Below are positions 31,601-49,348 of a stretch of DNA of 61,361 nt, in pieces (position 1 is the first letter of the stretch; every line of letters begins with the position of its first letter). This DNA is from a virus (lineage: Duplodnaviria; Caudoviricetes). The translations under genes and the position numbers were made by a program. Below the pieces are notes generated by a model, which was not told the origin of the DNA, did no database searches, and was given only the letters and a program-made list of their open reading frames with translations. The stretch covers positions 1-61,361 of IMG/VR virus record IMGVR_UViG_3300030333_005476. One strand, 5' to 3'.

Positions 31601-34600
31601 CGGTGGGTGATTTTAACGGTGGATGCAAAGTCCTAAGCGTTGGCGTAGGCCGAACCACGTTGGCTGACTGGGACAAAAATAATAACGTCCATGCGAAAGC
31701 CAAGACAAAGCCTGCGAATCCTCAAGCAGTAAAACCTAAAGATTTAGACGGTAACGCTTACGCCTCGAATACCCAAATACAGTATGACGAAATTAAGTTC
31801 GAATCCATGACTTGGGACGGAGATGGCACAATTCACAACGACAAAGACTCTAAGGATTTTACCTTGGCCTTACATACTGAATTCGGCATAACCATACAGG
31901 GCCATGTATTTGTGAAAAATGTTCACGTTAGAAGAGTGGTGGGCGGCGAATTTTACAGCGCAGATCACCTTACTAACGAAGAGAAAAGTGTTTGGGGATT
32001 GGACCCGAAGCAAGCACAAAAATTTGATGGAAGATTTTTCATTTGCGAGCCCTATATAACGGTAGACTTCGCAGAGTGGGAAGCGGTAAAGGGAAGTGTT
32101 TCGAGCGGCGGTGCAACCGACGCGGAGCCAGAAAACTCTCAAGCTGAAGATGATCCGGCCCCCGAAACTAGGACCGCACAAGCGTTAGAGCGTGCGGTTC
32201 AAATCGAAATGCAGCAATTTAATGCAGCAAACAATATCGAGTGGGCTTCTATGTTTAATAGTCAATGGTCCAAGCTGGAACGCATCGCTTATAAAACCTC
32301 TAGGAATCACAACTTCATAACTCCATACCCTTGGAGTCGAGCAAAGCTAACAAATATTTTCTCGCACAACGTTGACCCAGATGATGGCGCAGTTAATGCA
32401 CCTGGCAAACCTGCAACTATATTAAAACAAATATATAATATAGTTATTCAGATGCCGAAGGCGGACCCAAACGCTAAGCCGGGCACCACTGACCCCAGAA
32501 AAATTGGTGAGAGTGAGCTTAAGGCTCTTAAGTCACTAACTTATTACGTACCCACTTTTAGTAGATGCGGCAAAAACAAAAACAACATTTCTTTAAAAGA
32601 GACTTTCTTCAGCAACCAAACCTCTTACAACTTGTTTACCGCTAGCCAAAAAGTAGACGAAGCTCTTTGCGGTAAATATTCCTGTGGGGCAGTCCACGCT
32701 TATACCAGAGTTCCACCAATAGGTCTCTCTAGAGCCGCTGGCGTGAGCGACTCTAACATGAAACGAGTCGATAGCCGAGGAAACGTACTAAAAGATGCTA
32801 ATGGTAATGATATAACTTATACCGATTACAAGATTGATGGCCCCAAAGATGACCCACTGCCAATCTGTGGTAATGCGACTATCACCTTTAGATTTTTCCC
32901 AACGCAAAACACGCAAGTAAGAAGCAATCTTTATAACGAGTCCGTTAGTAGTGCTTTTCTTGGCCAAACGGGCTTTAACATAAGTGATTCTTGTTTGCCT
33001 TTGTATGAGGTTTCGGATACTAATGGAAAGGTCACTTCGGTAAAAGACGCTGATGGTAATGTGATCTTTACGGTGCCAAGTAAAAATTGGCTGGCTGAAA
33101 TTCCTGTACGATCACCCGGATTCTTCGCTAAGCTGGTTGGCAAGACAGAAGCCGACTACACACCTGCTACGGCAGATGTAACTTTACCTGAAATCTGGGG
33201 CAACTGGAGCAACGCTCAATTCAACCGGAAAGCGAGTGGTGGAAAAGAATCTTGGACATCAGGTTGGGTTCAAGGGGCTCTGAATCATGACAACTTTGTT
33301 TCTAGTATATTTAAAATAATCGTTGAGCTTTTTGTGGGCGACGTGTCTCCCAATTTGGCTATATTCCACCTTAGAAAAGCCTCCGCTAAAACACGCGTTT
33401 GGGATTACAAAAACGTAGGAACCGTTTTGGGCTACACATATGATCTACGGAAAGCTTACGAATATCACCGCATGATGCAAGATGGTTGGGCTCCTTATGC
33501 TCATGAATACGCGGGCGAAGACGCGATATCCACCAAAAACCCGTTTAAAAAAGGCGAAAGAAACACATATAACGGCAATAGTATTGCCGTATATCATCTT
33601 GCTCACGTTGGAAAAATCTTACAAGGTTTTTATAACGACCTTGCCTTGAGTAAAGAAACTTGGACGTCAAGCAACACAAAAGCGGCGCCTATTGATCCAT
33701 TTAACGAGAGCACACTAACAAACAACATTCACCCTTCTAGAAAACAGTTTGTTTCGCATGTTTTTGGTACACTTAAATATGACAACAAAGACCTCAGTCT
33801 TGGCTTTCGTATGAAAGGTTACCATGGTAGCCCACTTGAAATAACGGAAAATTCTTTTGAATCGTATAACCAACCGGAAAAAACGCTCACCGTAACTAGG
33901 ACTCTTTCTGGTCTGTGTTATCCCGTGGTAAACGATTACGGCTACAAGTGGGAGAGGCTCCTTTTAATGGAGGACTCTGATAAGTATTACGATAAGAAGG
34001 CGATTAATCCGTTTGAAAATTTCCAGCCTAGGTCGCAACAAAGACAAAGCAACGGCGCAAAATTAGGGCACTCCGTATTCGCTACTAGCGATAACACTGT
34101 ACCCCTTGGCTGGAGAGAGATTATTGACGGGATTGACGAAAAACACAATGGGACTATTTTTGCTCAGACTTATACCAATACCGCTCAACTATCAGAGCAT
34201 TACGGCTGGAACAAGACGATAAAAGATTATAAAAAAGAAATTTTAGGAAACCCTAACGCTACTGACGCAGAGATTGAAAAAGCTTGGAACGGAGATGCTG
34301 ACGCTATGGTTGAGTCCAACTTTCCAATCAGAGAATCTCAAGAAATAACTGGCCCTGATGAAAACGACGTGGTGCAGGAGGTGCAGTTGTATACTGAATC
34401 TCAAGGCACGCAGGGCGTAGGATATAACCCTTGGGCTGGTTTTGACATGTCAACCAATACGTCAGATTACGCGGCGGGAGAATTCATAGACAGCAGCCTA
34501 GACAACATTAATAATCAAGAAATTAGGCCTCCCCTTGATGAGACTTTCCCAAGTAAAAACGAATGGAATGATTTAGCCAAAGCAATGGACGAAAAAATAA

Positions 34601-37600
34601 AGGGAATGGCACAAATATTCCCTAGGATTTATATCACTGATTATAAATTCGGATATCAAGCGCAAGAGAATACTGACGGATCACTTATTTCTATACCGAT
34701 TAACGCAGACGAAAATGGAGTGGCTAAAAACACCAATATAATTGATCTTAAAAACTTTATTAAAGAATATATTAAAGCGGACAAGTTAGATCAAAATGGT
34801 AATCCATCATGGAAGTCTGACTCTTGGAGCGCTTGGGATAAGGCTTACAAAAACGCTATCGAAGGAAACTGGGGGCTGGAAGGTACTGGCTCATCAAAAA
34901 CCGCTGCAATGGCAGACCTTAGCGGCCAAGCTCTTTTATACTCTGAAATGGTGAATAAATTTCACTATTTAGATTGGGATGATGCCGCTGTGAACGGGCA
35001 CACCACTGAAATTAAAAACGCTGTGCCTATGGATGCTTGGGGGGATATCAGCACTGATGATCAAAAAGCCAAAATTACTCATACTGTAGGCTGGGGTCAC
35101 ACCGAGGAAGAGGCAGAAAATAATGCTCGTTTTGCTTTAGAAACCGAACTCATAAACAAACTTTTCACCAAGGCCGTTCCAAACAGTTGCATGCTTAACT
35201 ACGATGTTACGGATAAAACTACTTGGAAGGTGCAAAGCAACAATCCTTTAGATTCATTTAATCTTAATTGGAAGAGAAAGAGTAGCATAACAACAACCAT
35301 AACCGACAACCCAGAAACTCCTTTTTGTCAAGCGGGAATCCCCGCTGATGCAGATGATCATAAAGGTTGCGCTTGGATTCCTAGAAAATATGAAATTATA
35401 AACCCTGATACTTCAAGTTATACCAACTCACAAAATGTAAGCTTCGGGCCTATTTCAGACAATACAAAGAATAATCAAGATAAGTTTACATCTTTAAAAT
35501 CAAGATACCACGCAGGGAACAAACCGGATGGTAGGGACATGGGCGAAGTGTACAAAGTAACTGACGGATGTCTTCAACCGAAAATAGTGAGTTGGAATAG
35601 ACCTTTCAACGAGCTTTATGGTTTTTGGTGCGGCTCAGACGTTAGTGAAAATGGTAAAAACGCAGCTAAGGCTGACGCTTTAAGTCAATTGGCTTACGTT
35701 TATCATAACGTAATACAGTATGGATCGCCACAGTCGCCACCCCCTAACCCCTCTAGTTTTGCTGGAGGAAAAATTCTCAATGAGCCCTCAGCTAACGTAA
35801 ATATGGGTTGTCAATGCAAATTCCCAGACCAAGACGCCTTGGAGAACTCAAGCCAAGCCTTTGATCCTGCGAGCAACAAATGGAAAGTAGACAACAATAA
35901 CTACAGCGATCTGAAAAATCCATATCAAGTAAAACATTTAAGCTTTACGGACTACATAGAAGACAGTGTTGGTTATATTGCACAGCACGGAGGACAAGGA
36001 ACCGCTGGATATAGAACAGTTACTAACAATCCAACCATCTACACAGTAGAAAAAGGATTTTGCAGTATAGACGGATACAATAATCAAGCGGACTGTACGA
36101 GCAACGGTGGTACGTGGACCTCTAAAACTAGAGTGTCAGCAAAAGGAAGCACTTCGCAAGAGGCTTCAGATAGAGTGAACGGCTTGTTGAACATGTATAA
36201 GAGTAGTGATAATCCAGCTTATGGTATTTATTTCGGCGCATCTACAAACAATATACTTAGTCACAGCAATTGTACAGAGTGCAATGGAACATTATCAACT
36301 GTCGAATCAGATTATCAAAACTTGAATTTCATAGCTTGGACTCATGGGGACTTCAGTGATCATTTGTACAACATGGATTCTTTTTCGTATAATGGTGACG
36401 CAGGGGGCAGCACCGATCCATCCGATTGGAACGGCTGGGGCAACACATCTAATATTGACTATTGCATGATGCAGAATGCTTACGACAGCCCACCCACAGC
36501 CAACGGCAACGGCTACACTGGAGAATACGGACAGCATGGTCGCGGTTATCTTCACAATGATACAGTTAGAGCTGATTGGACTAGATGGGCGCAAAGCGGA
36601 AAAATAAATATCCCAGTTGCTTCAGCGGGATCAACAGACACTACCCTGCAAGACTTGTACGAATGTATTCAAGAGCAAGCATTTGAAAAATACATAGGAA
36701 ATGACACTACTTTCACCAATGGGCTCAAAGACGTTCCGCCAGGTAATGATGTGCTCTTTTCCAACATGGGTGATTTTGGTAGTCAGTGGTATGACAGCAG
36801 TCACTCAAGTTATTTAGACCTAATTTCGGATGGCACCTACACCTCAACCGCTGATGGCACGGTCTTTGTTGATAGCGACACGATAGGCGTTAATGTAGGC
36901 GCAGACGCTACCGCAACAAATCATTACAGTAATTGGGATATACCATACGGCAACCCGCCGAACGCAGGAAACGCTCAAAACGTTAACCAAAGCACTTGCG
37001 GGTGCGAGCAAACTACTTTGTGCAGTCATGCGGACGCGATGACTGCGGGATGGGACATACCAGGAGGAACTAGTGCGCCAAATTCTACATACCAATGCTA
37101 CGGAAGAGTCGTTACTAAAAATTATACAGACGGCAACAATAACATCATACCGATCTCTTTGTACGAACAAGTAATCTCTGGCAAGGCTACAAATCCGGAT
37201 GGCGACACAAGATGTGGAATTATATCTCAATCATATTGGGGCACACTTACTCATAAAGACTATGACGGAACCAATAGTTACACCGCTAAAATGGTGTTGA
37301 ATGATTCTTGCGAAACTTACGCGTTTGAGATTTCTGGGCTGTGCCCAAGTGTGGATTCAAACATACATAAAGTTGAAGTCTCAGGAACTTTGAGTTGCGG
37401 GTTGACTCAGCACAAGTATAAGGCTGGACTTTTAAGGAATAAATATAAAGGATACCTTTTTGCTAGCGGGTTAACTCCTTGGGTTACTGGTACAGCAGAC
37501 TGGACAAATGGAGGAATAACAGTTTATAAGAACCCCACCACCAAGCGAGTCGCAACAAGATTCCACGAACAAGAATATGTAGTAAACTACGGCACCGACG

Positions 37601-39405
37601 CTAAAGCCATAGATATCGATTATTCAAAAGCTCAAAAAACTCCAAATAATGCTGGAGCCGTTAGTAACAGTGCTCCAATAAATAGGAATAGAGGAGTTTT
37701 GATTTCTTCGGTTCCTAGCGCTAATACTGCGGGCCACAACCATTTGAGCACCGCTACCGCATGGGCATTAAAGCTGGGCACTTATACACAAAATTGGGCA
37801 AAGGTCAAATACAACGCTAGAACGCCGAAGGGGAAAGGTCCTGAATGTCGCGGGTGGGATGCGGATGGTAATTGTATAGAAATTGATCCAACATGGAAAC
37901 CAGGTTTTGATACCAACGAAAATGGTTACGGAGACCTAGTGTTTATGGGCGGATGGGATTTAATTAACCCCGCTTGGGGTAACGCAACAACAAACGAGGC
38001 TGACCAGTATTTAAGCAACACCCAAGGCGAGAGCGTTATAATTTATGACCCCAGCCGCGCGGTTGGCTTCGGTAAGAAATTTCGAAGACAAGGTGGGTCG
38101 AAAGGTAAAACGGTAATAAACGACACTGCCAGCACCGCAGTTAAAAATGCTTACGTTTTAAAGGTGAATAACAAAACTTATGGCGGAAATTCTGCGGCCA
38201 AACAGGGCGTGATCCACGCGGTATTTTATACCCAAGAATCTTATGAGAAGTACATACAAAATATTCACGTAACTAAAAACGTGCAGGTTTTAGATTATGG
38301 ATCAACAACAGCCGCTTCTGAAACTAGCTGGATAAATATTCCATCTATAAAAGGAGTGAAGGCCGCGTCCGGAGCTAAATCCAAAACTTTTGTTGGCGTT
38401 CAATACGCTATTCTGAAAACAGACACAGCCGCTTGCGAGCACTGCTTGTCTACTGAATTATCCGAAGTGCCTGACAGCAGGACCCACGATTATTTTAAAG
38501 ATAAAATGTACTTTGGCGAGCAATTTTTTATAGGCCAGAAAGTTAAATGGGATATATATAAAGGAAATTACGTTTTCAAGGTTCCTCTAAAATTGACAGG
38601 CAATGACGTGAAAAGCCCTCTAGATGGTTCTAACGTAAGGTTGGAGGATTGGGAAGAGGCTGTTACTCCTCAAGAAGCGGCTTTTGATGAAGACCTATCT
38701 AGGGAACATTATTTATTAACCACGAATTCCCTTAACAGTTGGCAACCACCAGCTCTTTCGTGCGGTGGATATTCTAAGCTAGATAAAATAGTAGACTTCT
38801 CAACTTGGACAAATAGATCGTGGTCACAGATTCCTAAGGGTGGAATAATCGAATGGAACGATGGAAATATGCCAGATGGAGTTATGTATAAGGGTCCGGA
38901 CGCTAGCTCTAATACGATTGTCGGGGAATCGAGCAGCTCAGTTGGCAACGACGTATTAGTTGGCGAGACCATCACTGAGTTTGATGTTAACCCTCAAAAC
39001 TACTCAACGGTGATTGGGAAAGAAAAATACTATTTCCGAGTTGGTAAAATGGTTCAGGTGTACAGCATATCTACCCCCACTAAATACTTAATAGGAGAAA
39101 TAAAACAGTTTGCCATGAATGGTAATTTAGCACGAATAGATATTAAAGTTACCGAAGTGAGCGCCACCTTCGATGACCCCGCCGACAAACAAGTACAATT
39201 AATAGCGCACCCATATAACATGCTTTTTGATGGTGGGGCTTACGATGTACTATCCGAGAGGTTCCCGAACAAGGGTAAAGCTATAACCAACGTAACTGAG
39301 CGTAGAAATGTTGGAACAAAGTCCAAAGATTTAGACTTAAGCAAGGGAGCGTATGACGTCGAGGGCGCTGACAATAGCTACACAAGTAATACTTGGGGCT
39401 CATAA
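28636..39405 (+). CDS. Giant 3589-aa protein, probably virion-associated, function unknown
   Basis: Uninterrupted 10.8-kb ORF; GTGTAA at 28610; AAGG upstream. Confidence 0.85.
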   Translation: MAGIVIQSMGPLTAAQLNERPQGKAFQASAQGSGQVIKDYHLLDPDSVWWRTVHPDEGVVIFGPEIINGKFDLTSETVLQRSRLAGNNLKISPAEAKAVFGLLIDPDNPNEKLHESIMGASKFKHSSFVEKWRGVAATEIANPFKQRFDYSSMQRFLGHAVKYYAAASTLNYLKEAENARAEAIQQWETANSAYLSSGEGARNTAWVTEYNAQFLTQGTTTYQELIPGCPYPWWSGCYRDVTVANGMYGSALSDPWQTTTDPDSLTSLQNLISRTLWENEPRVIAQLGEFDPNSNFRMIAWDEGLNNYASYLNEQGGAANWQSLSSANSFWDVGNFRNEQLNPGARPENLSFATSKKFLKGFLIMGACLAGIGVLARVWGKIREDANSTFNANGFESSESWSHHTSRVLAHTIGQSTLTTWIKNLIQDHDPTQFALNAYQGGKDVVEKCKNIIQSLLTSGRRDVGGDFITSDYRLIDSTYEYTLGGQGALLATTNTIGVNVTLTNSKVLVLKASKVEDVVKEYFKDLPVTAQNWRQKVNAKMHEQFYSSAKRDAILSLAEVGVPGTGAFKIVIQDGGNGYPYGRERLGVNEHGYYIFTFDPATNRVLITGVSDLKYGLAVKPDFLDERQFLTGRFYKISHGVLLENFKELRSSLSQISNIIKTKKSTASKLNAKLVAQQQQNAKSIYWNTPVELPHNYKTANQFKHLNLKTYLDSDGNLSHIPSNNKPHQVWGVELIEVTKQNEKTQAWEEHKNKEGQFEIPDGQVPLKQVAEFNNGTTYATAPNVEDVAWVGYLNGGSRHFNSPRNPAFNILPNSPTNEAQKGIAKEVLFEKTIVRGRDRGTYRAKIKFWGWGSIFVAPADAAAGVADSLLYENRLSDHYKLAHFYDTICKKLDAEIYKACSVINRKFQNHTGGSKFGTLIPTFSAAINNYGMLQRAFVDTRGWDLNNAKKEEGDHQDGGENLKGHGDFTANHFHATNTKTFKLNMGAVGDFNGGCKVLSVGVGRTTLADWDKNNNVHAKAKTKPANPQAVKPKDLDGNAYASNTQIQYDEIKFESMTWDGDGTIHNDKDSKDFTLALHTEFGITIQGHVFVKNVHVRRVVGGEFYSADHLTNEEKSVWGLDPKQAQKFDGRFFICEPYITVDFAEWEAVKGSVSSGGATDAEPENSQAEDDPAPETRTAQALERAVQIEMQQFNAANNIEWASMFNSQWSKLERIAYKTSRNHNFITPYPWSRAKLTNIFSHNVDPDDGAVNAPGKPATILKQIYNIVIQMPKADPNAKPGTTDPRKIGESELKALKSLTYYVPTFSRCGKNKNNISLKETFFSNQTSYNLFTASQKVDEALCGKYSCGAVHAYTRVPPIGLSRAAGVSDSNMKRVDSRGNVLKDANGNDITYTDYKIDGPKDDPLPICGNATITFRFFPTQNTQVRSNLYNESVSSAFLGQTGFNISDSCLPLYEVSDTNGKVTSVKDADGNVIFTVPSKNWLAEIPVRSPGFFAKLVGKTEADYTPATADVTLPEIWGNWSNAQFNRKASGGKESWTSGWVQGALNHDNFVSSIFKIIVELFVGDVSPNLAIFHLRKASAKTRVWDYKNVGTVLGYTYDLRKAYEYHRMMQDGWAPYAHEYAGEDAISTKNPFKKGERNTYNGNSIAVYHLAHVGKILQGFYNDLALSKETWTSSNTKAAPIDPFNESTLTNNIHPSRKQFVSHVFGTLKYDNKDLSLGFRMKGYHGSPLEITENSFESYNQPEKTLTVTRTLSGLCYPVVNDYGYKWERLLLMEDSDKYYDKKAINPFENFQPRSQQRQSNGAKLGHSVFATSDNTVPLGWREIIDGIDEKHNGTIFAQTYTNTAQLSEHYGWNKTIKDYKKEILGNPNATDAEIEKAWNGDADAMVESNFPIRESQEITGPDENDVVQEVQLYTESQGTQGVGYNPWAGFDMSTNTSDYAAGEFIDSSLDNINNQEIRPPLDETFPSKNEWNDLAKAMDEKIKGMAQIFPRIYITDYKFGYQAQENTDGSLISIPINADENGVAKNTNIIDLKNFIKEYIKADKLDQNGNPSWKSDSWSAWDKAYKNAIEGNWGLEGTGSSKTAAMADLSGQALLYSEMVNKFHYLDWDDAAVNGHTTEIKNAVPMDAWGDISTDDQKAKITHTVGWGHTEEEAENNARFALETELINKLFTKAVPNSCMLNYDVTDKTTWKVQSNNPLDSFNLNWKRKSSITTTITDNPETPFCQAGIPADADDHKGCAWIPRKYEIINPDTSSYTNSQNVSFGPISDNTKNNQDKFTSLKSRYHAGNKPDGRDMGEVYKVTDGCLQPKIVSWNRPFNELYGFWCGSDVSENGKNAAKADALSQLAYVYHNVIQYGSPQSPPPNPSSFAGGKILNEPSANVNMGCQCKFPDQDALENSSQAFDPASNKWKVDNNNYSDLKNPYQVKHLSFTDYIEDSVGYIAQHGGQGTAGYRTVTNNPTIYTVEKGFCSIDGYNNQADCTSNGGTWTSKTRVSAKGSTSQEASDRVNGLLNMYKSSDNPAYGIYFGASTNNILSHSNCTECNGTLSTVESDYQNLNFIAWTHGDFSDHLYNMDSFSYNGDAGGSTDPSDWNGWGNTSNIDYCMMQNAYDSPPTANGNGYTGEYGQHGRGYLHNDTVRADWTRWAQSGKINIPVASAGSTDTTLQDLYECIQEQAFEKYIGNDTTFTNGLKDVPPGNDVLFSNMGDFGSQWYDSSHSSYLDLISDGTYTSTADGTVFVDSDTIGVNVGADATATNHYSNWDIPYGNPPNAGNAQNVNQSTCGCEQTTLCSHADAMTAGWDIPGGTSAPNSTYQCYGRVVTKNYTDGNNNIIPISLYEQVISGKATNPDGDTRCGIISQSYWGTLTHKDYDGTNSYTAKMVLNDSCETYAFEISGLCPSVDSNIHKVEVSGTLSCGLTQHKYKAGLLRNKYKGYLFASGLTPWVTGTADWTNGGITVYKNPTTKRVATRFHEQEYVVNYGTDAKAIDIDYSKAQKTPNNAGAVSNSAPINRNRGVLISSVPSANTAGHNHLSTATAWALKLGTYTQNWAKVKYNARTPKGKGPECRGWDADGNCIEIDPTWKPGFDTNENGYGDLVFMGGWDLINPAWGNATTNEADQYLSNTQGESVIIYDPSRAVGFGKKFRRQGGSKGKTVINDTASTAVKNAYVLKVNNKTYGGNSAAKQGVIHAVFYTQESYEKYIQNIHVTKNVQVLDYGSTTAASETSWINIPSIKGVKAASGAKSKTFVGVQYAILKTDTAACEHCLSTELSEVPDSRTHDYFKDKMYFGEQFFIGQKVKWDIYKGNYVFKVPLKLTGNDVKSPLDGSNVRLEDWEEAVTPQEAAFDEDLSREHYLLTTNSLNSWQPPALSCGGYSKLDKIVDFSTWTNRSWSQIPKGGIIEWNDGNMPDGVMYKGPDASSNTIVGESSSSVGNDVLVGETITEFDVNPQNYSTVIGKEKYYFRVGKMVQVYSISTPTKYLIGEIKQFAMNGNLARIDIKVTEVSATFDDPADKQVQLIAHPYNMLFDGGAYDVLSERFPNKGKAITNVTERRNVGTKSKDLDLSKGAYDVEGADNSYTSNTWGS

Positions 39406-39436
39406 ATTTAGAATTTTAAAGAAAAAAAAAGTATAA

Positions 39437-39736
39437 TAATTGACCATATTGGGTGAATTCGGGGAAACTCTCTTTTGAGACAATCCCGAGCCAAGCCAGA
39501 GTGGACTGAGTTTCTCTGGAAGGTGTAGAGACTAGAGGGTGAGTTCCAACGATAACCCCTCCACGAGCGCCCAACGCCGAAAGGTGAAGATATAGTCCGA
39601 ACTATATGGCGACATATAGAAGCTGTAATTAAAAAAACAGTGATAACATAATTGGATTAGTGGGAAGTCGGCTCAGTGTTAGCGCCGCCCCGAGCCAAGG
39701 GTTGGCTCGCTAATAGACTGTCCCGCTGTCGGTTAA
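39437..39736 (+). ncRNA. Group I intron ribozyme, ORF-less and intergenic, apparently circularly permuted
   Basis: P3 TTGGGTG(39449)/CGCCCAA(39568); P4 TTCGGGG(39458)/TCCCGAG(39484); P5 TCTC/GAGA; P6a CCAGAG/CTCTGG; P7 GAGACTA(39528)/TAGTCC(39593); J8/7 AAGATA; P8 CGCC-GAAA-GGTG; P9 CTATATG-GCGA-CATATAG; P9.0 GA/TT before omega-G 39654. Confidence 0.9.
39655..39734 (+). ncRNA. Predicted 80-nt structured exon, released as a circular RNA
   Basis: Bounded by the predicted 3' splice site (39654/39655) and 5' splice site (39734/39735); stems TAGTGGGA/TCCCGCTG, AGTC/GACT, TGTTAG/CTAATA, CGAGCCAA/TTGGCTCG. Confidence 0.7.
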
Positions 39737-39754
39737 CCAAAAAGGAATAAGGAA

Positions 39755-40138
39755 ATGCCAGCTAAGAAGAAAACAACTAAAAAGGCTTCTGCACGTAAGG
39801 GTAAGAGGGTTGACTCTCTTTCTCAAGCCCACGGCAAAGAAGAGAAATATGAGCCAACCACTTTAGATCAAATTTGGGGTGATACAGGAATGTCCAAGTA
39901 TAAAACCTTGGATGTAGAAGAATACGAGGAGCAAATCAAAGAGTATTCCAAGTCCGAGCTTCAAGCTCACGCCGTAAAAGTAGGTTTAATTCCAGTAGAC
40001 AACCCCACGCAGTTAAGAAAAAGACTGATGACCGAGTTTAGGAAGCACGCGTCTGTGTATAAAGCGCCAATTCACGCGAAAAAAGACGAAACTCCCATCT
40101 CTCCAGAAGTACGTAAAATATTAAATGAGGGAAAATAA
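39755..40138 (+). CDS. Basic protein with a small helical domain (Rho-N/SAP/HeH-like)
   Basis: Lys-rich N-terminus; YSKSELQAHAVKVGL.....QLRKRL helix-extension-helix pattern. Confidence 0.7.
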   Translation: MPAKKKTTKKASARKGKRVDSLSQAHGKEEKYEPTTLDQIWGDTGMSKYKTLDVEEYEEQIKEYSKSELQAHAVKVGLIPVDNPTQLRKRLMTEFRKHASVYKAPIHAKKDETPISPEVRKILNEGK

Positions 40139-40519: not shown

Positions 40520-43500
40520 ATGTCGCACACAGTACAAGTCATTACGTCAGGGAAAAGTCTTCAGGCTGTTCCTGTTTATCCAGGTAGCAATGTTCCCGTA
40601 GTAATTCAGGGCACAGTTGGGCCATCAGGAGCGAGAGGCGGCGCTGGGCCTTCGGGCGCTACCGGGCCTGCTGGACCTCAGGGCATACAGGGAATTGTTG
40701 GTCCGTCTGGACCAGTCGGGCCAGTTGGTCCCAGTGGACCGCAGAGCCCAATCACTGGACATTTAATCCCCGATGCGAGTGGCGTATACGATTTAGGCTC
40801 CCAAGGAAAACATTTTAGGTCTTTGTACCTTCACGGGCAAACTATTCATAGTTATGACCCTGCTGCTGGAGGATACAACTCTGTAAAAATAGAGGACGGA
40901 TCAATTTCTGTAACCAAACCAGGACAAATAGTAGAGGAGTGTGCCAGCACCACTTGGTCACAATCAAGCACTTACTCTATAAACGATACGGTCTGTGCTC
41001 AGGTTCCGGGAACCACTGAGTATCAATGCTACGAATGCCAACCCAATTTAACTTCGCTGCCAGACGTAAGCGGCCTTTGCTGCTTGAATAATAATTGTGT
41101 TGTAACCACTCAGGCCAACTGCTGCGCTTCTGGAAGCAGTCTATTTTATCCGAATGTGTATGATTGCAACGCAATGAATATTTGTGATGCGAATGGTAAT
41201 GGTAGCGATCCTTGCCAAGACTCATTTGGAACTGGCGTATCTGCAAACTGCACAGGTGTTCCAGGAAATGACCCGACTTGGCAATATTGCAGCGCCCCAC
41301 CAACGGTTGTAAATACTGATACATGTCCGTGCGCGGATTGGGGGAGGCTTTATAAATTTGGGGGATATGTTACTGATGATAAAAGCCTAGGAGAAGGAAC
41401 GTTTGCTTTTTGGAGAAACCCGTACAACAACGGAACCTCTATGGAAACTGTTGAAAGAGTTCTTTGGAATGACAACGACGCAAAAGGCGAATCAACCATA
41501 TACTTTAAGGATGACGCTCAAAACAAGCGATATGCTTGGCCCCTTGATGAAGACTGGATGGGACGAGACGGTCTTGAGAAAATGCAGAATTATGGGCTGG
41601 GTGGAACATTCGGAGTTTTTAGAAAAGATAAGCCGAATGAATACGTAAAAATTCAATTGAGAAAGCCGACAGTCAACATTGGCGGGCTGAAGGAATCAAC
41701 ATGGGCAAGATTTATTAACGCCTTAAAGAATGGTCAAGCGCTTAATCAAACCTACAGCTTTGTACCTACTGGCGCGAAGTTTTTAGGAGCAAATTGGGAA
41801 AATTTTAATTACGGTTGTGAAGAAGCTTCTGTACCGTATTGTCTTCTTCCAAACGGTAGCACAAGCCCCCTGTTGAAAGAGGCCTGTGAGGATGCTGGGG
41901 GAACATATAAAGAAAGCGAGCCCTTACCGATTACTAAGTCTTGGGGCCAATCTCAATTGAATGGTCCTGATTATTCTTCATACAAATATAATACCAAAAA
42001 TGGGCTCGGAGGATTTAATGGGCCAGATTGGAGCAATACGAGCATAAGAAGTGCTTTAACAGCGCAGCAAATGATGGACGAAGTAACTTCAGCTTTTAAT
42101 CAATGGGCAGATTTATTCAATGATGTTTATAAAGACGTTAAAGACTTTAGCGTGTCCTTTACTAATTTAGGTTTAGAAAACCCAGCTAATTGGGTTGGCA
42201 ATGTAAACGGTATAGAAAACCCAGCTCAATACATTGATGATGTTCGTGAAAAACCAAAAAAACCTCAAGCACTAGAAAATCTCGGTGGCTTCAGGATGGC
42301 GGAAGAGCCCACAGAAGCCTTTAAAGATTTATCGTGGAACAGTAATAATACCGCAGGGTGGCCAGGAGGTTTTAGATTTTCGTTAGTTGATTTTAATATT
42401 AAAAATGAAAACACGCTTGCATCGATGAAGCCTTTGGCTGATGTATTTAGTGATAGTCACAATAAGCCAAGTTCAGATATTATGATTAACGCCAACGTTT
42501 GTTGGAGATTGGATTCTCAAACCGCAAATTATAATTTAATTATAGATACTACATCTGAAAATAAATTTTTTGTACCTACCTTTTCGGGTTACGAAAAGGA
42601 TGCTTGCGATACTGCCAAGCTTACAAAAGAAGGTTGGAATCTCAGAGATTTAGGCGCTTTCCCAAACGCTATTGGCTGCGGCTGGATTGCCCGCAATGAC
42701 TCACCCACAATTGCGGTACAAGTTAAACTCCAGGGCACAGGAGAGCGAACAGTAGTAGTGGCAAAGAAAGGTTGGGCAGATGGTTTTATATCTCTCTATC
42801 CGAAGTTTGGCAATACTAAAAGCTTACAACACGTTATCATGCATGAGATAGGACACTCTCTCGCCTTCAATCACGAAAAAGATGGCTGGCATATGGAGGG
42901 TTTGGGAAATGTAGAAGGAGATAAGAAGCTCCTGTTCTCGGGACCGAAAAAACCCTTCTCTTTAGATCGTCCAGCATCCGTTCAGGACGCCGCAGTTCAA
43001 GCCGCGCAACCCCACAAAACAGAGAACCATCTTTCTTCATTACGAGGGGTTCATAGAACCCATTGGAAAGAAGCGTTTGTGATAATGTCCTCATCGGGTC
43101 CCATAGAGAATTTAAGAGAACTTTTCCCAAATGGGGAAGCTAAAAACTGCGCGCTTCATAGAGAGTATGCAGAAGCATTGGGGTTAATTCATCTAGCGAA
43201 ACACAATCCTTTGGGATACAGAAAGGCTACTATCTTACAAATTACTGAAAACACTTTAAGTCAGCCGTTAAAAATCGGAGAAGAGGTGTGGATATGTTAT
43301 GAGCCTGATATGACTGAAAAGATGGGCGCGCCGCAGCATTTGAATACAAAGGAGAACATAAGAATCTACGAAGAAGAGAGCTTCGGGTGGAATAAACCCA
43401 AACCCATGCAGGAAGGGGAAATAGACGCACTAATACGAGGAATCAACGAAGGGAAGTACGATAACATCGGCCCTTGGGACCCGAATAAAAATTACATCGA

Positions 43501-43531
43501 CGGAAAAGAGCTAGAAAAGGAGGATCATTAA
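40520..43531 (+). CDS. Fibre protein: collagen repeat, Cys-rich region and metzincin (M10-like) domain
   Basis: Gly-X-Y run; many Cys; AFNQW...HEIGHSLAFNH. Confidence 0.8.
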   Translation: MSHTVQVITSGKSLQAVPVYPGSNVPVVIQGTVGPSGARGGAGPSGATGPAGPQGIQGIVGPSGPVGPVGPSGPQSPITGHLIPDASGVYDLGSQGKHFRSLYLHGQTIHSYDPAAGGYNSVKIEDGSISVTKPGQIVEECASTTWSQSSTYSINDTVCAQVPGTTEYQCYECQPNLTSLPDVSGLCCLNNNCVVTTQANCCASGSSLFYPNVYDCNAMNICDANGNGSDPCQDSFGTGVSANCTGVPGNDPTWQYCSAPPTVVNTDTCPCADWGRLYKFGGYVTDDKSLGEGTFAFWRNPYNNGTSMETVERVLWNDNDAKGESTIYFKDDAQNKRYAWPLDEDWMGRDGLEKMQNYGLGGTFGVFRKDKPNEYVKIQLRKPTVNIGGLKESTWARFINALKNGQALNQTYSFVPTGAKFLGANWENFNYGCEEASVPYCLLPNGSTSPLLKEACEDAGGTYKESEPLPITKSWGQSQLNGPDYSSYKYNTKNGLGGFNGPDWSNTSIRSALTAQQMMDEVTSAFNQWADLFNDVYKDVKDFSVSFTNLGLENPANWVGNVNGIENPAQYIDDVREKPKKPQALENLGGFRMAEEPTEAFKDLSWNSNNTAGWPGGFRFSLVDFNIKNENTLASMKPLADVFSDSHNKPSSDIMINANVCWRLDSQTANYNLIIDTTSENKFFVPTFSGYEKDACDTAKLTKEGWNLRDLGAFPNAIGCGWIARNDSPTIAVQVKLQGTGERTVVVAKKGWADGFISLYPKFGNTKSLQHVIMHEIGHSLAFNHEKDGWHMEGLGNVEGDKKLLFSGPKKPFSLDRPASVQDAAVQAAQPHKTENHLSSLRGVHRTHWKEAFVIMSSSGPIENLRELFPNGEAKNCALHREYAEALGLIHLAKHNPLGYRKATILQITENTLSQPLKIGEEVWICYEPDMTEKMGAPQHLNTKENIRIYEEESFGWNKPKPMQEGEIDALIRGINEGKYDNIGPWDPNKNYIDGKELEKEDH

Positions 43532-46500
43532 ATGAAAACGCATAACGCTGGCGAAACAAGTATTCCAATGGTTTTATTTACTGGGGCTAGTGGTCTCTTT
43601 ACTTTAGAAAACAATTATGAACATGGCTATCGAGACGCTAGTGTCGTTGTACACCACGGAGTTAAATATCAAGCCTTAAAATACTCAAGCGGCATCGAAC
43701 CGGGCGTTAGCCCTCATTGGCAAAACTACTGGAAAGAAGTGGGCGTTTCTGGCGCTGGTTCTAAAGTAGCCGTCCAAGACGAAGGCTCATTTATTACATA
43801 TGTTGCTACTGGTTTAAATTTCGTGGGCTCTGGCGTAACAGCTACAAACAATAATAATTTAGTTACAATTAATATTCCGGGTGGACCCTCAGGCGCAAGA
43901 GGTGCCGTGGGGCCAGAAGGACACTTTGGTGGAGATGCTCAATTATTTAATTACTATACAGGCAAAGATGATGCTGGTGTAGACAATTCGTTAACAGGTA
44001 AAGACGGCTTTCTTTCGATCTATGGACCAAGAGGAAAAGACGAGAGAATATTTTTTGATTATTTAGATGGTACTGCTGGTAATGTTAATGTTTCTGGCTG
44101 GGGAACATGCATGACATACCCAGGAAATATTAAAATATACAAACTCAATGAGCCGCATAATTATCAAACTCATAAATTAACTTCATTTACTAGCACCAAT
44201 TTTGGTTCTCCTTGGCCCGCGCTAGTCTCTGGTTGTAAACACGGTGGTACGGTTACTTTTAAATACAGCTTTATAAAACTCGGAACCCGTACGGCAGATG
44301 GTAATTATCCGGGAGCTTACACGGCATACGATTTCCCCAACACTCACACTGGAGATGTGGGCGCTGCATTTAATGATTGGAAAGAAGCGTTTGAGGAAAT
44401 TTACCCTAACCTCACTTTAAATTTTCAAAACATGGGTCACGAGACTGGTACGGCAGTGGGTTCCGATCAGTATATAGATGACAACTTTAACACCGGCCAA
44501 TACGATTATGCAATACCCCATCCTAACGAAACCAACATTGGTGACATAAGAATTGCTATACATCAAATAGATGGCACAGCAAATACTTTAGCTCATAGTT
44601 ATCAGCCGGGAGGCGTGCTGGGTGTTACAGGAAATAAGGGTGGCGATATTCACTTTGACTACTGGGAAAACTGGAGAGTTGACAGTGACTCTACAAATGC
44701 CAGCACGCACTACAGTATTAAACGCGTTGCTGCTCATGAAATTGGCCACGCTTTAGGCTTGGGTAATGATACAGACAGCTCAGCAGTAATGTATGATACT
44801 ATCGCCGTTGGTGATACGTATGATACAAAATTCCCCTCAGGCATAAAAGCCTCTGTAAAAGATTTAGAGAACATTGAAAATATTTACGGAAACACTTGGG
44901 GCTATCACAAGAAAAGCACGGAAAAAATTTGCGACTATTCTAACTGGTCTGATGGAGACAAAGTAGTTATTAACTGGGCTCCTGGTAGTAACGAGCGGGG
45001 TCCTGCTGGTCCCGCCGGTCCTGCGGGTGCAACCGGACCCCAGGGAAGCACTGGGGCTACTGGAGCTACCGGGCCTCAAGGCCCAGCGGGTTCTAGCGGA
45101 ATGACCTCGTTTACTTTAGCTGGAGACAGCGGAAGCAGCGAGACCGTGGGAGACGGAAACACCTTGACTGTTGCTGGTGGAAACGCGGTAGATACAGCGA
45201 TCAGCGCCACTGACACGGTTACCATTAATCACGCGGATACATCTTCTCAAGCTTCTGTAAACAACACTGGTAGAACATATATCCAAGATGTTACAGTGGA
45301 CACTTACGGACACGTCACAGGTTTAACCTCTGCAACAGAAACCGTAACTGATACCACTTATTCTGCTGGTACATTAATGGATTTAGCTACTACAACATTT
45401 AATGTTGATCTATCTGAAGCTGCCGAAGCTCAACTTGGGACTGGTGACTATTTGATATTCCTAGATGGAGGAGCCACTGGAACCGCTGCTAAAGAATCCT
45501 TGGATGACTTTGCTGATTTACTTGCTGGAGATGGCCTAACGGCAACCACCTCAGTCATCGCTGTTAATGTAGACGATTCGACCCTTGAGATAAGCGGGGA
45601 TCAAGTAAGGGTAAAAGACAACGGAATCACAGGAGCCAAAATCGCCCTAGGTTCTGATGCTCAGGGCGACATAATGTATTATAGCGGCACAGATTGGGTT
45701 AGGCTTGCCGCTGGTACATCAGGACATTTCTTGAAAACCCAAGGGGCAGGAGCCAATCCAGTATGGGCAGCGGCTTCGGGAGGAGGAACCGCTAGCGACT
45801 CCTTTAAGACTATTGATGTAAATGATTCTGATTCAGGATTTACTTGGGGAAGCAATGATGTAATTGCGGACTCGAGCACGGACACTTTAAAGCTCATCGC
45901 TGGTACAAATATAACTTTAGAAAGTGATGCTACTAATGATGCAATTCGTATTACTGCCGCTGGCGGCGGAGGAAGTGGAGACATCACGGGAGTTACGATC
46001 ACCACGGACACTGGCGCGGGAAGTAAAGCGGAAGACACTAGTGGTTCAGCAGACTTCAGCATCCTAGGCGGAACTGGAGCAAGCGTGACGAACTCTGGAG
46101 CTACAATTACCATCACTTCAGAGGATGGTGAGATAGACCACGACGCCCTAAGTAATTTCGTTGCCAACGAACATATCGATTGGACTACCGATCAAGGATC
46201 AACGAATATCCATTCCGGAAATTATACAAACACGACTTACGTAAGCTCTGATTTTGACCACGATCAACTCACCAATTTCGTTGCCAACGAACATATCGAT
46301 TGGACCGCTTCTAGCGCGGGAACAATTCACGCCAGTAACTATACTGATACAAATACTACTTATTCTATATCTTGCGTAGACGGTGATAACTCTGATGAAG
46401 AAAAGATTAGATTGACCGACTCTAGCTCTGGCACTGATGATATAGTTCTTGAGGCGGGAACAGGATTAAGTATTGCTAGAAGTGGAGATAAAATTACATT

Positions 46501-49348
46501 TACTAACACAGTAAGTGATTCAAACCTTACTACAGAAGAAGTCCAAGATATTGCGGGAGCTTTGGTCGCTACTGGCGGAACCAAAACAGGCATCACTATT
46601 ACCTATGATGATACTAATGGAGATATGGATTTCGTCGTTGACCACGACGCAGCAAGTAATTTCGTGGCAAACGAACACATTGACCATACGTCTGTAACTC
46701 TTACCGCTGGAGATGGATTAACTGGCGGTGGAGACATCAGCGCAAATAGAACTTTTGCTGTTAGCGTGGATGATAGCACAATCGAAATAAACAGTGATTC
46801 CTTACGCGTTAAAGATAACGGTATCACAGGCGCAAAAATCGCTCTTGGCTCTGACGCCCAAGGCGATGTCATGTACTATAACGGCACAAATTGGGCAAGG
46901 CTAGCCGCTGGAACCAACGGGCACTTCTTAAAGACTCAAGGCTCGGGCGCAGACCCAGTTTGGGCTTCAGCTTCCACGAGTGGCATGTCCAACTTCGTAT
47001 TGGAAGATGGAGACGGAACAGAAGTCACTATTAACGACGGTAAAGAAGTTAAGTTCGTTGAGGGTAACGGAATTGACATCAATTGGACTGACAGCAGCAC
47101 TGGTGATGATAGTGACCCATATGATTTAACATTTACCGTAGATCATGATGCGGCTACTAATTTTGTAGCCAACGAACACGTTGACCATAGCGGCGTAACC
47201 CTTACCGCTGGAGACGGCCTGACAGGCGGTGGAGATATTACCGCAAGTAGAAGTTTCGCTGTCAGCGTTGATGATAGTACAATAGAAATTAACAGCGACT
47301 CCTTGCGTGTTAAAGACTCTGGGATAACATTAGCTAAGATGGCCAATCTTGCCGACATGAAAGTGCTCGGTAACGTATCTGGAGGTGCCGCTGCTCCTGC
47401 GGCGGTAAGCATCCTAGACGAAGATGCTATGGGCTCTAATAGCGCTACCTCACTAGCCACGCAACAATCTATCAAGGCTTATGTTGACTCCCAAGTTCAA
47501 CCAACCCTAACCACAGAGCAAGTTCAGGACATTGTCGGCGGCATGGTAGACGATACAGAAACAGGCATTTCCGTAACCTATGATGATACAAACGGTAATT
47601 TAGAATTTGTTGTTGACCATGATGCCGCTAATAATTTCGTGGCTAACGAGCACGTTGACCATACCTCCGTAACCCTTACCGCTGGAGACGGCCTGACAGG
47701 CGGTGGAGATATTAGCGCCAACAGAACGTTTGCGGTTAGCGTAGACGATAGCACAATCGAAATCAACAGTGACTCTTTAAGGCTAAAAGATTCTGGAACT
47801 ACATTGGCCAAGATGGCTAACCTTGCCGATATGAAAGTAATCGGTAATGTTTCAGGCGGTGCTGCAACCCCTGCCGCCGTAAGCATCCTTGACGAAGACA
47901 ATATGGCTTCCGATAGTGCTACGTCGTTAGCTACTCAGCAGTCTATTAAGGCCTATGTTGATTCTCAAGTTCAGCCGACTCTGACTACGGAGCAAGTTCA
48001 AGACATTGTCGGCGGAATGGTAGACGATACAGAGACAGGAATTTCCGTAACTTACGATGACACAAATGGCAACCTAGAGTTCGTGGTAGACCATGATGCA
48101 GCCAATAACTTCGTGGCTAACGAGCATGTTGATCACTCAGGCGTCACTTTAACTGCGGGCACTGGCTTGAGTGGTGGAGGAGACATTACCGCGAGCAGAA
48201 CATTTGCCATTGACGCAGCGCAAACAGGTATAACTTCTCTTCTGGCTACTGACATTAAGATTGGTGAGGATGACCAAACTAAAATTGATTTTGGAACAGT
48301 TAACGAAATACACCTTTACGCCGACAACACTAAGAGAGTAACGATAGACTCTACTGGTTTAACCGTCAACAGTGGCAGCTTGGAAACAGCGACCATTGAT
48401 TATACTGATGGCGACAATGCAATTACTATTGCTGATGGAGGTGGATGTACCTTCCCGCAAGAAGTTACCTTTAGTTCTGGATTTGACGTAGGCTCAGACG
48501 CAGAGGGTGACATACTATACCACAACGGCACTACTTACGTAAGACTTGCCAAGGGTTCTGATAACCACGTACTCACCATGAATGGTAACGTACCAAATTG
48601 GGAAGCGGCTTCAGGTGGAGGTAGCTCAGTTTCTTTCGGTTCTGACAATCAGATACCTTACATGAATTCTGGCGGTGATGATTTCGAATATTCTGCTAAT
48701 TTTACGTGGGGTCATAGCTCCAATCTGTTGAAGGTAGATGGAGATATCGAAATGGCTGAGAAGCTCTTTCATAAGGATGATTCTAATACCTTTCTCCACT
48801 TTGTTGGCGGCGACGATTTTCGTATTGTCGCTGGCGGTAAGGAGTATTTATCAATAGACGCTAGCTCCGCTAATGAGGTTTGTATCAATGAGCAAGGCGA
48901 ATCTTTTGATTTTAGGGTTGAAGGTGACACCAACGCTAACTTGCTCTTTGTTGATGGTAGCGCTGACAAGGTTGGCATAGGCCTTAATGACCCAGACGAA
49001 GCTCTAGAGGTGGCTGGCAGCATTCACATACAAGGAAATATACGTTCTGATGTTCATGATTATGGAACGTCTGGTGATTTTGACCCAGATTTCGATGAAG
49101 ACGCGTTACAGAAGGTAACTTTGAGCGGGGGCACCATTAACGCTTCGGCAAATAGAGCTGCTGGAAAATCGATTGTGATTAAAATCGCCGCTGGCGGAAG
49201 CGCAAGAACTTTCACTTGGAATAGTAGCTGGGTATTCATCGGTGAAAAACCAACCAGCATCGCCGCAAATAAAATAGCCTTACTAAGTATGACCTGTTTT
49301 GGCACGGCTGAAACCGATGTTGTTTGCAGCTACGCAGTTCAAGATTAA
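43532..49348 (+). CDS. Long tail fibre with matrixin-like domain, collagen segment and internal repeats
   Basis: GDIRI...TLAHSY.PG...GGDIHFD..E.W...VAAHEIGHALGLG...AVMY; Gly-X-Y run; six NFVANEH repeats; KVGIG. Confidence 0.88.
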   Translation: MKTHNAGETSIPMVLFTGASGLFTLENNYEHGYRDASVVVHHGVKYQALKYSSGIEPGVSPHWQNYWKEVGVSGAGSKVAVQDEGSFITYVATGLNFVGSGVTATNNNNLVTINIPGGPSGARGAVGPEGHFGGDAQLFNYYTGKDDAGVDNSLTGKDGFLSIYGPRGKDERIFFDYLDGTAGNVNVSGWGTCMTYPGNIKIYKLNEPHNYQTHKLTSFTSTNFGSPWPALVSGCKHGGTVTFKYSFIKLGTRTADGNYPGAYTAYDFPNTHTGDVGAAFNDWKEAFEEIYPNLTLNFQNMGHETGTAVGSDQYIDDNFNTGQYDYAIPHPNETNIGDIRIAIHQIDGTANTLAHSYQPGGVLGVTGNKGGDIHFDYWENWRVDSDSTNASTHYSIKRVAAHEIGHALGLGNDTDSSAVMYDTIAVGDTYDTKFPSGIKASVKDLENIENIYGNTWGYHKKSTEKICDYSNWSDGDKVVINWAPGSNERGPAGPAGPAGATGPQGSTGATGATGPQGPAGSSGMTSFTLAGDSGSSETVGDGNTLTVAGGNAVDTAISATDTVTINHADTSSQASVNNTGRTYIQDVTVDTYGHVTGLTSATETVTDTTYSAGTLMDLATTTFNVDLSEAAEAQLGTGDYLIFLDGGATGTAAKESLDDFADLLAGDGLTATTSVIAVNVDDSTLEISGDQVRVKDNGITGAKIALGSDAQGDIMYYSGTDWVRLAAGTSGHFLKTQGAGANPVWAAASGGGTASDSFKTIDVNDSDSGFTWGSNDVIADSSTDTLKLIAGTNITLESDATNDAIRITAAGGGGSGDITGVTITTDTGAGSKAEDTSGSADFSILGGTGASVTNSGATITITSEDGEIDHDALSNFVANEHIDWTTDQGSTNIHSGNYTNTTYVSSDFDHDQLTNFVANEHIDWTASSAGTIHASNYTDTNTTYSISCVDGDNSDEEKIRLTDSSSGTDDIVLEAGTGLSIARSGDKITFTNTVSDSNLTTEEVQDIAGALVATGGTKTGITITYDDTNGDMDFVVDHDAASNFVANEHIDHTSVTLTAGDGLTGGGDISANRTFAVSVDDSTIEINSDSLRVKDNGITGAKIALGSDAQGDVMYYNGTNWARLAAGTNGHFLKTQGSGADPVWASASTSGMSNFVLEDGDGTEVTINDGKEVKFVEGNGIDINWTDSSTGDDSDPYDLTFTVDHDAATNFVANEHVDHSGVTLTAGDGLTGGGDITASRSFAVSVDDSTIEINSDSLRVKDSGITLAKMANLADMKVLGNVSGGAAAPAAVSILDEDAMGSNSATSLATQQSIKAYVDSQVQPTLTTEQVQDIVGGMVDDTETGISVTYDDTNGNLEFVVDHDAANNFVANEHVDHTSVTLTAGDGLTGGGDISANRTFAVSVDDSTIEINSDSLRLKDSGTTLAKMANLADMKVIGNVSGGAATPAAVSILDEDNMASDSATSLATQQSIKAYVDSQVQPTLTTEQVQDIVGGMVDDTETGISVTYDDTNGNLEFVVDHDAANNFVANEHVDHSGVTLTAGTGLSGGGDITASRTFAIDAAQTGITSLLATDIKIGEDDQTKIDFGTVNEIHLYADNTKRVTIDSTGLTVNSGSLETATIDYTDGDNAITIADGGGCTFPQEVTFSSGFDVGSDAEGDILYHNGTTYVRLAKGSDNHVLTMNGNVPNWEAASGGGSSVSFGSDNQIPYMNSGGDDFEYSANFTWGHSSNLLKVDGDIEMAEKLFHKDDSNTFLHFVGGDDFRIVAGGKEYLSIDASSANEVCINEQGESFDFRVEGDTNANLLFVDGSADKVGIGLNDPDEALEVAGSIHIQGNIRSDVHDYGTSGDFDPDFDEDALQKVTLSGGTINASANRAAGKSIVIKIAAGGSARTFTWNSSWVFIGEKPTSIAANKIALLSMTCFGTAETDVVCSYAVQD
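47141..48088 (+). repeat. Tandem 474-nt (158-aa) duplication inside the fibre gene
   Basis: Units begin DHDAA at 47141 and 47615; a partial third unit begins at 48089. Confidence 0.85.

Follow-up and report, generated by a model that had tools for sequence, protein, structure and literature searches.

The window, by which we mean the whole stretch of DNA analysed here, comprises the 61,361 bases of the phage record IMGVR_UViG_3300030333_005476, whose completeness is estimated at 40% and whose genes include a terminase and virion-type genes. On the + strand, an ORF of 3589 aa (28636-39405) ends with a TAA stop at 39405, and a gene for a lysine-rich protein of 127 aa lies at 39755-40138. A group I ribozyme core starts with helix P3 at 39449, leaving a gap of 43 nt of AT-rich DNA behind the upstream ORF, which is not its host gene. 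No + strand ORF of 40 aa or more is present inside 39406-39754. These findings bear out the preliminary description of this DNA, which had placed a complete group I core without host gene or ORF between two intact genes, about 43 nt of AT-rich sequence after the upstream stop. ARAGORN found no tRNA in the window, and a tRNA or tRNA-like host for the ribozyme was therefore dropped. Very large ORFs (3589, 1003, and 1938 aa) occupy 28636-39405 and 40520-49348; the 1003-aa ORF contains collagen-like repeats and a weak matrixin-like match, both under the Pfam cut-offs.

The downstream 127-aa protein belongs to no family in Pfam or PHROGs and has no tblastn match among GenBank phages. The terminase gave only matches of about 25% identity to GenBank phages. 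From these two results, no cultured relative was found. At the DNA level there were no close relatives among GenBank phages; the matches were short and fell on conventional intron cores in Bacillus, Clostridium, Staphylococcus, and other phages. A protein atlas returned viral "hypothetical protein" clusters only.

The catalytic core (39449-39640, P3 to P9.1) was checked helix by helix and base by base. Rfam model RF00028 (group I) matches 39378-39619 on the + strand with 79.2 bits (E = 1.7e-18; gathering score 50), and it was the sole match of a whole-window Rfam scan at gathering score, which detected no riboswitch. The helices are P3 (39449-55 with 39568-74), P4 (39459-64 with 39484-89), P5 (39469-72 with 39477-80), P6a (39496-501 with 39514-19), P7 (39530-34 with 39593-97), P7.1 (39535-39 with 39557-61), P8 (39575-78 with 39583-86), P9 (39602-08 with 39613-19), and P9.1 (39623-26 with 39637-40), all on the + strand. 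The core motif AAGATATAGTCC is read at 39587-39598, and the loops of P8 (GAAA, 39579-39582) and P9 (GCGA, 39609-39612) are of the GNRA type, in agreement with the complete core described earlier. The G-binding helix P7 and the J8/7 segment of group I introns are both present, together with AAGATATAGTC. A P7.1 hairpin between P7 and the 3' strand of P3 is typical of IA-type phage introns. [quoted passage not shown] In the A-run of L9.1, RNA contigs from two runs of different studies have T instead of A at 39637, which may be a strain difference.

The final base of the ribozyme, omega-G, was assigned with the help of a conventional intron of the same subfamily. The intron of locus L092 splits a protein between ...LQNSG and EEAII...; its P1 pairs AGUGGU, with the splice site after the last U, with GCCACU, and its 3' end is GAUAACAAAACG. 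Its exons encode ...VSISGLEELQNSG followed by EEAIIDLLESR..., and locus L109 carries exactly that sequence uninterrupted. Thus, the 3' splice site of the L092 intron is fixed and serves as a control for the splice-site rule. The window shares with this intron the motif GATAACA(N)nTG (GAUAACA(N)nUG in the RNA), with the splice site directly after the G, which sets omega-G at 39654 and the 3' splice site between 39654 and 39655. Divergent copies have a single G at the omega-G position, and omega-G with its preceding U is kept in 22 of the 22 copies read.

Directly before the core lies the guide, or internal guide sequence (IGS), TAATTGACC (39437-39445), identified by pairing and covariation. Its bases 39442-39445 pair with the last 4 nt of the segment that follows omega-G, and 39440-39441 pair with 2 nt beyond, so that TTGACC (39440-39445) faces GGTTAA (39731-39736) in P1. 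This pairing includes G39442.U39734 and places the predicted cut, the 5' splice site, between 39734 and 39735; the 127-aa gene starts 20 nt farther on. The cut lies 80 nt past omega-G (39734 minus 39654), as had been proposed. Only 4 bp of P1 are on the exon side. In P10, guide bases 39438-39441, plus 39437 in the window copy, pair with the first nucleotides after omega-G. All 9 positions of the guide therefore pair with the would-be ligated junction (a 5-bp P10 and a 6-bp P1 site). The claim of full-length pairing of this 9-mer holds for the window copy, but 8 of the 9 positions are kept in the family and the fifth P10 pair is found in only 3 of 14 copies. The splice sites stand in reversed order, omega-G at 39654 before the cut at 39734, and this order is identical in 22 copies. 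As in ribozyme-first ring makers, both ends of the segment between the two splice sites can pair with the guide, with a weaker P10 in some copies.

How often such pairing arises by chance was estimated from 5000 dinucleotide shuffles of the 100 nt 3' of omega-G. A P1-type 6-bp site occurred in 868 of them (17%), a 5-bp P10 in 62, and both in 34. The chance level from this window alone is moderate, and the signal in excess of chance comes from the relatives. A second GGTTGG able to pair with the guide lies in the apical loop of the spacer (39699-39705); its conservation does not extend to L003 or to other relatives.

A search for group I sequences in related phages, which the preliminary description had suggested, was productive. 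In total, 21 related copies on uncultured phage contigs share one layout with the window: guide, core, omega-G, folded spacer, and GGNU with the cut after its U, directly 5' of a gene. A 27-nt core pattern retrieved one IMG/VR contig with the same layout before a gene for a 50%-identical homolog of the 127-aa protein. A 21-nt degenerate P3-P4 pattern matched 28 stretches of IMG/VR with 30 copies, of which 18 read as permuted-type and 12 as conventional by two measures, the folding energy and the A+T content of the 44 nt before P3. Thirteen of the 18 permuted-type copies are near the window in sequence, and 5 form a divergent subgroup before other large genes. Metagenomes added three permuted-type copies (L140, L157, and L210) with a pattern that was too loose, since only these 3 of its 119 stretches contained a group I core. 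A scan of genome contigs gave 18 stretches, among which only L239, cut at the locus end, looks permuted-type. One 147-kb phage contig (L099 and L107; G001:C1:100437-112839) carries three permuted-type copies within 12 kb, each before a large gene (539-914 aa). PHROGs returned nothing for the five large genes behind divergent copies. An exact 20-nt spacer pattern had 0 matches in IMG/VR, and a first protein-pattern scan matched 44 stretches with 0 relatives among them.

All 14 aligned copies (alignment A2) precede a homolog of the 127-aa protein. Among 80 loci kept from 176 relatives, the ribozyme is directly upstream of the small-protein gene in 6. Ribozyme-less loci show a conserved gene of 370-378 aa, an intrinsic-terminator-like hairpin, a promoter-like box, and then the small gene. 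This spacing indicates that the ribozyme cassette sits between promoter and gene. The window copy of the conserved gene is at 24664-25776 (53% identical), and PHROGs gave no match for the 378-aa gene upstream of the small gene in relatives.

Conventional introns of the same subfamily were observed to interrupt phage protein genes at L087, L083/L098, L091, L092, L104, L105, and L109. L087 has two of them in one stretch, and in L091, L083, and L104 ORFs appear inside or after the intron. The P3-P4 motif also occurs in Saccharibacteria, Berkelbacteria, and Doudnabacteria MAGs (L235, L237, L240, L242, L244, and L245); these candidate-phyla-radiation copies stand behind strong local hairpins and are probably conventional introns.

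In the sister introns, a 5' exon strand, a loop, and the guide directly precede P3. In the permuted-type copies, the 44 nt before P3 fold weakly (0 to -7.7 kcal/mol) and are AT-rich (64-86% A+T), whereas the same segment in conventional copies folds with -7.5 to -16.2 kcal/mol at 41-70% A+T (the truncated L090 left out). The exon strand and loop of the sisters are missing at this place in the window, and the guide alone stands before P3. Exons on both sides of the intron, as a host gene would provide, were not found, there being no upstream partner for P1. These comparisons agree with the earlier statement that no nearby upstream exon can form P1, and they support the P1 loop as the likely break point of the permutation, as had been suggested.

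Compensatory changes in the 14-copy alignment bear on P1 and P10 directly. The six pairs of P1 are formed in 84 of 84 cells, and the G.U pair at the cut site is present in 14 of 14 copies; when the partner strand was slid by 1-3 columns, 0-57% of the cells were paired. Pair 16/350 is GC in 12 copies and AU in 2, and pair 14/352 is UA in 10, CG in 2, and UG in 2. The four pairs of P10 are 91% paired, with one mismatch each in L053, L085, and L096, and both 11/272 and 12/271 show AU in 8 copies and GC in 3. When mapped on a tree derived solely from core columns 19-268, pairs 16/350, 14/352, 11/272, and 12/271 need at least 1, 4, 6, and 5 changes, respectively. The GC forms of both P10 pairs appear in three separate lineages each, and the CG form of 14/352 has separate origins in L096 and L102.

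The divergent copies, read by eye, extend this pattern. P1 reads GUCC:GGAU in L084 and L107, GCCC:GGGU in L140 and L210, GACC:GGUU in L099, and GGCC:GGCU in L095. Since the middle pair is U-A in L084/L107 and C-G in L140/L210, it is found in all four Watson-Crick forms across the wider family. P10, also read by eye, extends to 8 bp in L095, and L084 has a 4-bp P10 of unrelated sequence; in 5 of the 8 divergent copies it has 1-3 bp. Among these 8 copies, P1 of L157 has only 3 bp, and one L099 copy needs a one-base register shift. Together, these comparisons support covariation of the guide in several independent lineages, in P1 with the downstream site and in P10 with the bases that follow omega-G. 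The preliminary description had named covariation of IGS and junction as a check, and both helices answer to it.

The segment between omega-G and the cut (39655-39734), hereafter the spacer, would be the exon of the permuted unit. It folds into a long hairpin, for which the 14 copies (75-80 nt) give a consensus of 21 pairs; compensatory changes are seen at 17 of these. When 39620-39770 was scanned against Rfam by E-value, no family was assigned, the 4 matches (E = 1.6-4.4) being far under their gathering scores. The first three bases of the spacer (GAY) pair with RUC directly before GGYU in 14 of 14 copies, and the third base also covaries with its RUC partner. Because this stem competes with P10 and covaries itself, part of the P10 signal is shared with it. 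The stem would keep the two splice sites next to each other, in the manner of the arms used in the engineered cis-splicing system (PMC11417360). The fourth P10 pair covaries as well (AU in 8, GC in 3), though it is unpaired in the spacer's own fold. In the wider family, spacer lengths of 16 nt (L140), 24 nt (L210), and well over 100 nt (L084, L107) occur, so the spacer is conserved within subgroups and not family-wide.

A conserved asymmetric internal loop was seen in the spacer hairpin, its two sides reading roughly GTGCAGNGTACTAA (5') and CCAGTAAAC (3'). It lies at 39670-39685 and 39712-39722 of the window and likewise in L053, L085, L088, L089, L096, L100, and L102; it could be a protein-binding or docking site. 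Rolling-circle translation of a ring made from the spacer was rejected, as 80 is not a multiple of 3 and the spacer contains TAG and TAA codons.

At the level of sequence, the permuted order of guide, complete IA-type core, omega-G, 80-nt hairpin, and P1 partner strand has been shown. The likely explanation, in our opinion, is a stand-alone, naturally permuted ("guide-first") group I ribozyme. Such a ribozyme should cut the message of the next gene free and would probably close the 80-nt folded RNA into a ring. By the standard group I mechanism, free guanosine or GTP would attack between 39734 and 39735 in the first step. The attacking G would then head the downstream RNA as its first base (G-AACCAAAAAGGAAUAAGGAAAUG...), and the message of the 127-aa gene would be released. 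In the second step, P10 would replace the intron side of P1, and U39734 would attack after omega-G and join G39655. The predicted products are an 80-nt ring (39655-39734) and a linear ribozyme of 218 nt; the ring would be a rod with one end closed by a GGUU loop (GGYU in the family). As a working view, we take the unit to mature a late message and, in doing so, to produce a small, stable RNA ring. The observation in the preliminary description is confirmed, and its interpretation as a natural back-splicing device is supported as far as sequence can test it.

Sequences before the guide were inspected for transcription signals. TATAAT at 39431-39436 (+ strand), directly before the guide, is a candidate -10 element, and TATAAT or TGTATAAT precedes the guide in most relatives. 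A sigma-70 scan at the window ribozyme gave no -35/-10 pair on the + strand and no full promoter or terminator. Transcription may start at the guide; with no full promoter before the guide and no terminator after the giant ORF, read-through is also possible. In L108, promoter-like sites end directly before the guide and directly before the small gene, and both L010 and L108 have terminator-like sites about 10 nt past the cut site. In these two loci, ribozyme and spacer look like a self-contained RNA gene.

Other motifs were noticed near the guide and the cut. About 10 copies have a GTTCTTTAAAA-like motif between the TGTAATAAT/TATAAT box and the guide; it is absent from the window. The motif was read 10-25 nt before the guide in L084, L095, L099, L107, L157, L140, L210, L027, and L010, and may represent an initial transcribed sequence or serve as a pairing partner. 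In L088 a GTGTATAAT box lies between the predicted cut and the ATG of the small gene, which suggests a separate promoter for that gene.

Six RNA sequencing runs from three studies cover part of the stretch, and contigs of four of them (X1, X2, X5, and X6) were aligned. One metatranscriptome contig (X5) covers 39735-39888; it begins exactly at the predicted cut, with one unaligned letter beyond, and is a weak hint in support of that cut. One RNA-library contig, which comes from a different study than the X5 contig, spans 39514 to 39801 uncut, across both splice sites, and may represent precursor or DNA carry-over. Two further RNA contigs stop at 39673 and 39660; five letters of the second do not align, and it may derive from a relative. 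The assembled contigs of the four runs contained no back-splice junction, but rare forms are lost in contig assembly and RNAs of 80 nt in standard library preparation, so contigs lacking the junction are no evidence of its absence.

The strongest competing explanation is that the element merely trims a leader: the first step, or hydrolysis, would occur between 39734 and 39735, omega-G and P10 would be leftovers, and no ring would be made. The position of the predicted cut, always 2-37 nt upstream of a start codon, suits this idea. In L100 (11163-11174) the small-gene ATG starts 3 nt past the site, and cutting would give a nearly leaderless message. The range of spacer lengths, from 16 nt to well over 100 nt, the weak P10 of several copies, and the competition between P10 and the closing stem of the spacer point the same way. 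However, a ribozyme that only cuts would not readily account for the retention of omega-G and its U in every copy read, for the covariation of the fourth P10 pair outside the spacer's own fold, or for the strongly conserved spacer hairpin of the 14-copy group. In L010 and L108, moreover, the terminator-like site separates cut and gene, so that the unit does not head the gene's message there. On balance, we consider a cut-only leader ribozyme unlikely.

An ordinary intron whose 5' exon lies farther upstream or on another transcript, acting in cis or in trans, for example to rewrite the end of the giant ORF, is very improbable. The Rfam alignment does put a nominal P1 hairpin at 39382-39403, within the end of that ORF, but this hairpin lacks a U.G pair where a splice site could lie. 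Upstream of the ribozyme, the DNA of relatives differs and is unrelated (other genes, terminators, promoter-like DNA), yet their guides still match the downstream site. After omega-G, all three frames stop within 18 codons. A decaying, inactive remnant in which the match of guide and downstream site is a structural accident might explain why host gene and homing endonuclease are lacking and why the window-only statistics are modest, but it is scarcely credible for 22 copies of one layout, up to 3 per phage contig, in which P7 is invariant (14 of 14 copies) and 56 pairs, P1 and P10 included, are 97.4% paired, 24 of them with compensatory change. Slid controls of the same 56 pairs were 33-40% paired, and this pattern clearly speaks for a ribozyme core under selection.

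Returning to the guide-first ribozyme, a wider role may be envisaged, though we advance it tentatively and with more doubt than confidence. Uncultured large phages may use promoter-driven permuted group I genes for GTP-dependent release of late messages and for production of a nuclease-resistant dumbbell ring that acts in trans. If so, the first step would create a new short 5' end and tie late gene expression to the guanosine nucleotide pool. The conserved internal loop of the ring would act in trans, for instance as a decoy or regulator during infection.

Among the known systems close to the window unit are the conventional ORF-less IA-type phage introns (L092, L109, L091, L083, L087, and others; RF00028), which belong to the same subfamily. 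They share its core motifs GGGTGAATTCGG, P7.1, and AAGATATAGTC, and the GATAACA..G before the 3' splice site. Unlike the window unit, they are inserted in protein genes, and their P1 is a local hairpin in which the 5' exon strand immediately precedes the guide.

Permuted group I introns are a main laboratory route to circular RNA. In the classical permuted intron-exon (PIE) constructs, reportedly made by Puttaraju and Been in 1992 from the T4 td or Anabaena intron, a single transcript carries the 3' splice site ahead of the 5' splice site and back-splicing gives a ring, as predicted for the window. PIE introns are split in an internal loop, and two half-introns flank the exon, whereas the window unit is opened in the P1 loop, and nothing but the 5' strand of P1 lies downstream. 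A c-di-GMP-controlled group I ribozyme is said to reside in a 5' leader of Clostridioides difficile (attributed to Lee et al., 2010). It resembles the window unit as a group I ribozyme in a gene leader whose reaction alters the 5' end of the message; it is reported to be an ordinary-order intron joined to a riboswitch, whereas Rfam finds no riboswitch in the window.

The preliminary description had offered no described natural example of a back-splicing group I intron. One is in print, the ND5-717 intron of corallimorpharian (mushroom-coral) mitochondria (PMC6545197; cited in PMC8637638). ND5-717 is a true protein-gene intron of 18-19 kb with genes in its P8 (PMC6545197), whereas the window holds a stand-alone unit of 218 nt that interrupts no gene. 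The literature matches on permuted group I ribozymes were confined to engineered PIE and ribozyme-first systems, CP group II, and the coral intron; none in the article texts searched concerned stand-alone units in phages. A natural stand-alone permuted group I unit is thus not in print in the literature searched.

CP group II ribozymes (PMC8637638) are like the window unit in being natural, stand-alone, permuted, and self-splicing with reversed splice sites, and they make small rings of 15-86 nt. They belong to another ribozyme class with branching chemistry and are found on bacterial chromosomes and plasmids, not in phage gene leaders. A natural family of the kind proposed here would be their group I counterpart. 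It would also suggest that small circular RNAs and messages cut by ribozymes have gone unrecognised in the late gene expression of phages.

In design, the window unit resembles engineered ribozyme-first systems. In the cis-splicing system of PMC11417360, P1 (u-G) forms between the guide and the 3' end of the cargo, and P10 between the guide and the cargo's 5' end, as in the window. Such ribozyme-first designs use arm-like pairing to hold the ends of the cargo close to each other and yield a ring and a linear ribozyme. A Tetrahymena-based ribozyme-first circularisation system (PMC10415121) is also engineered. These systems are laboratory designs with large coding cargos. The window unit, in contrast, is natural and phage-encoded and lies before a gene, with a non-coding hairpin cargo of 16-80+ nt. 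A natural family would supply compact (218 nt), diverse, pre-optimised scaffolds, and it would show that evolution had reached the ribozyme-first design that engineers published in 2023-2024.
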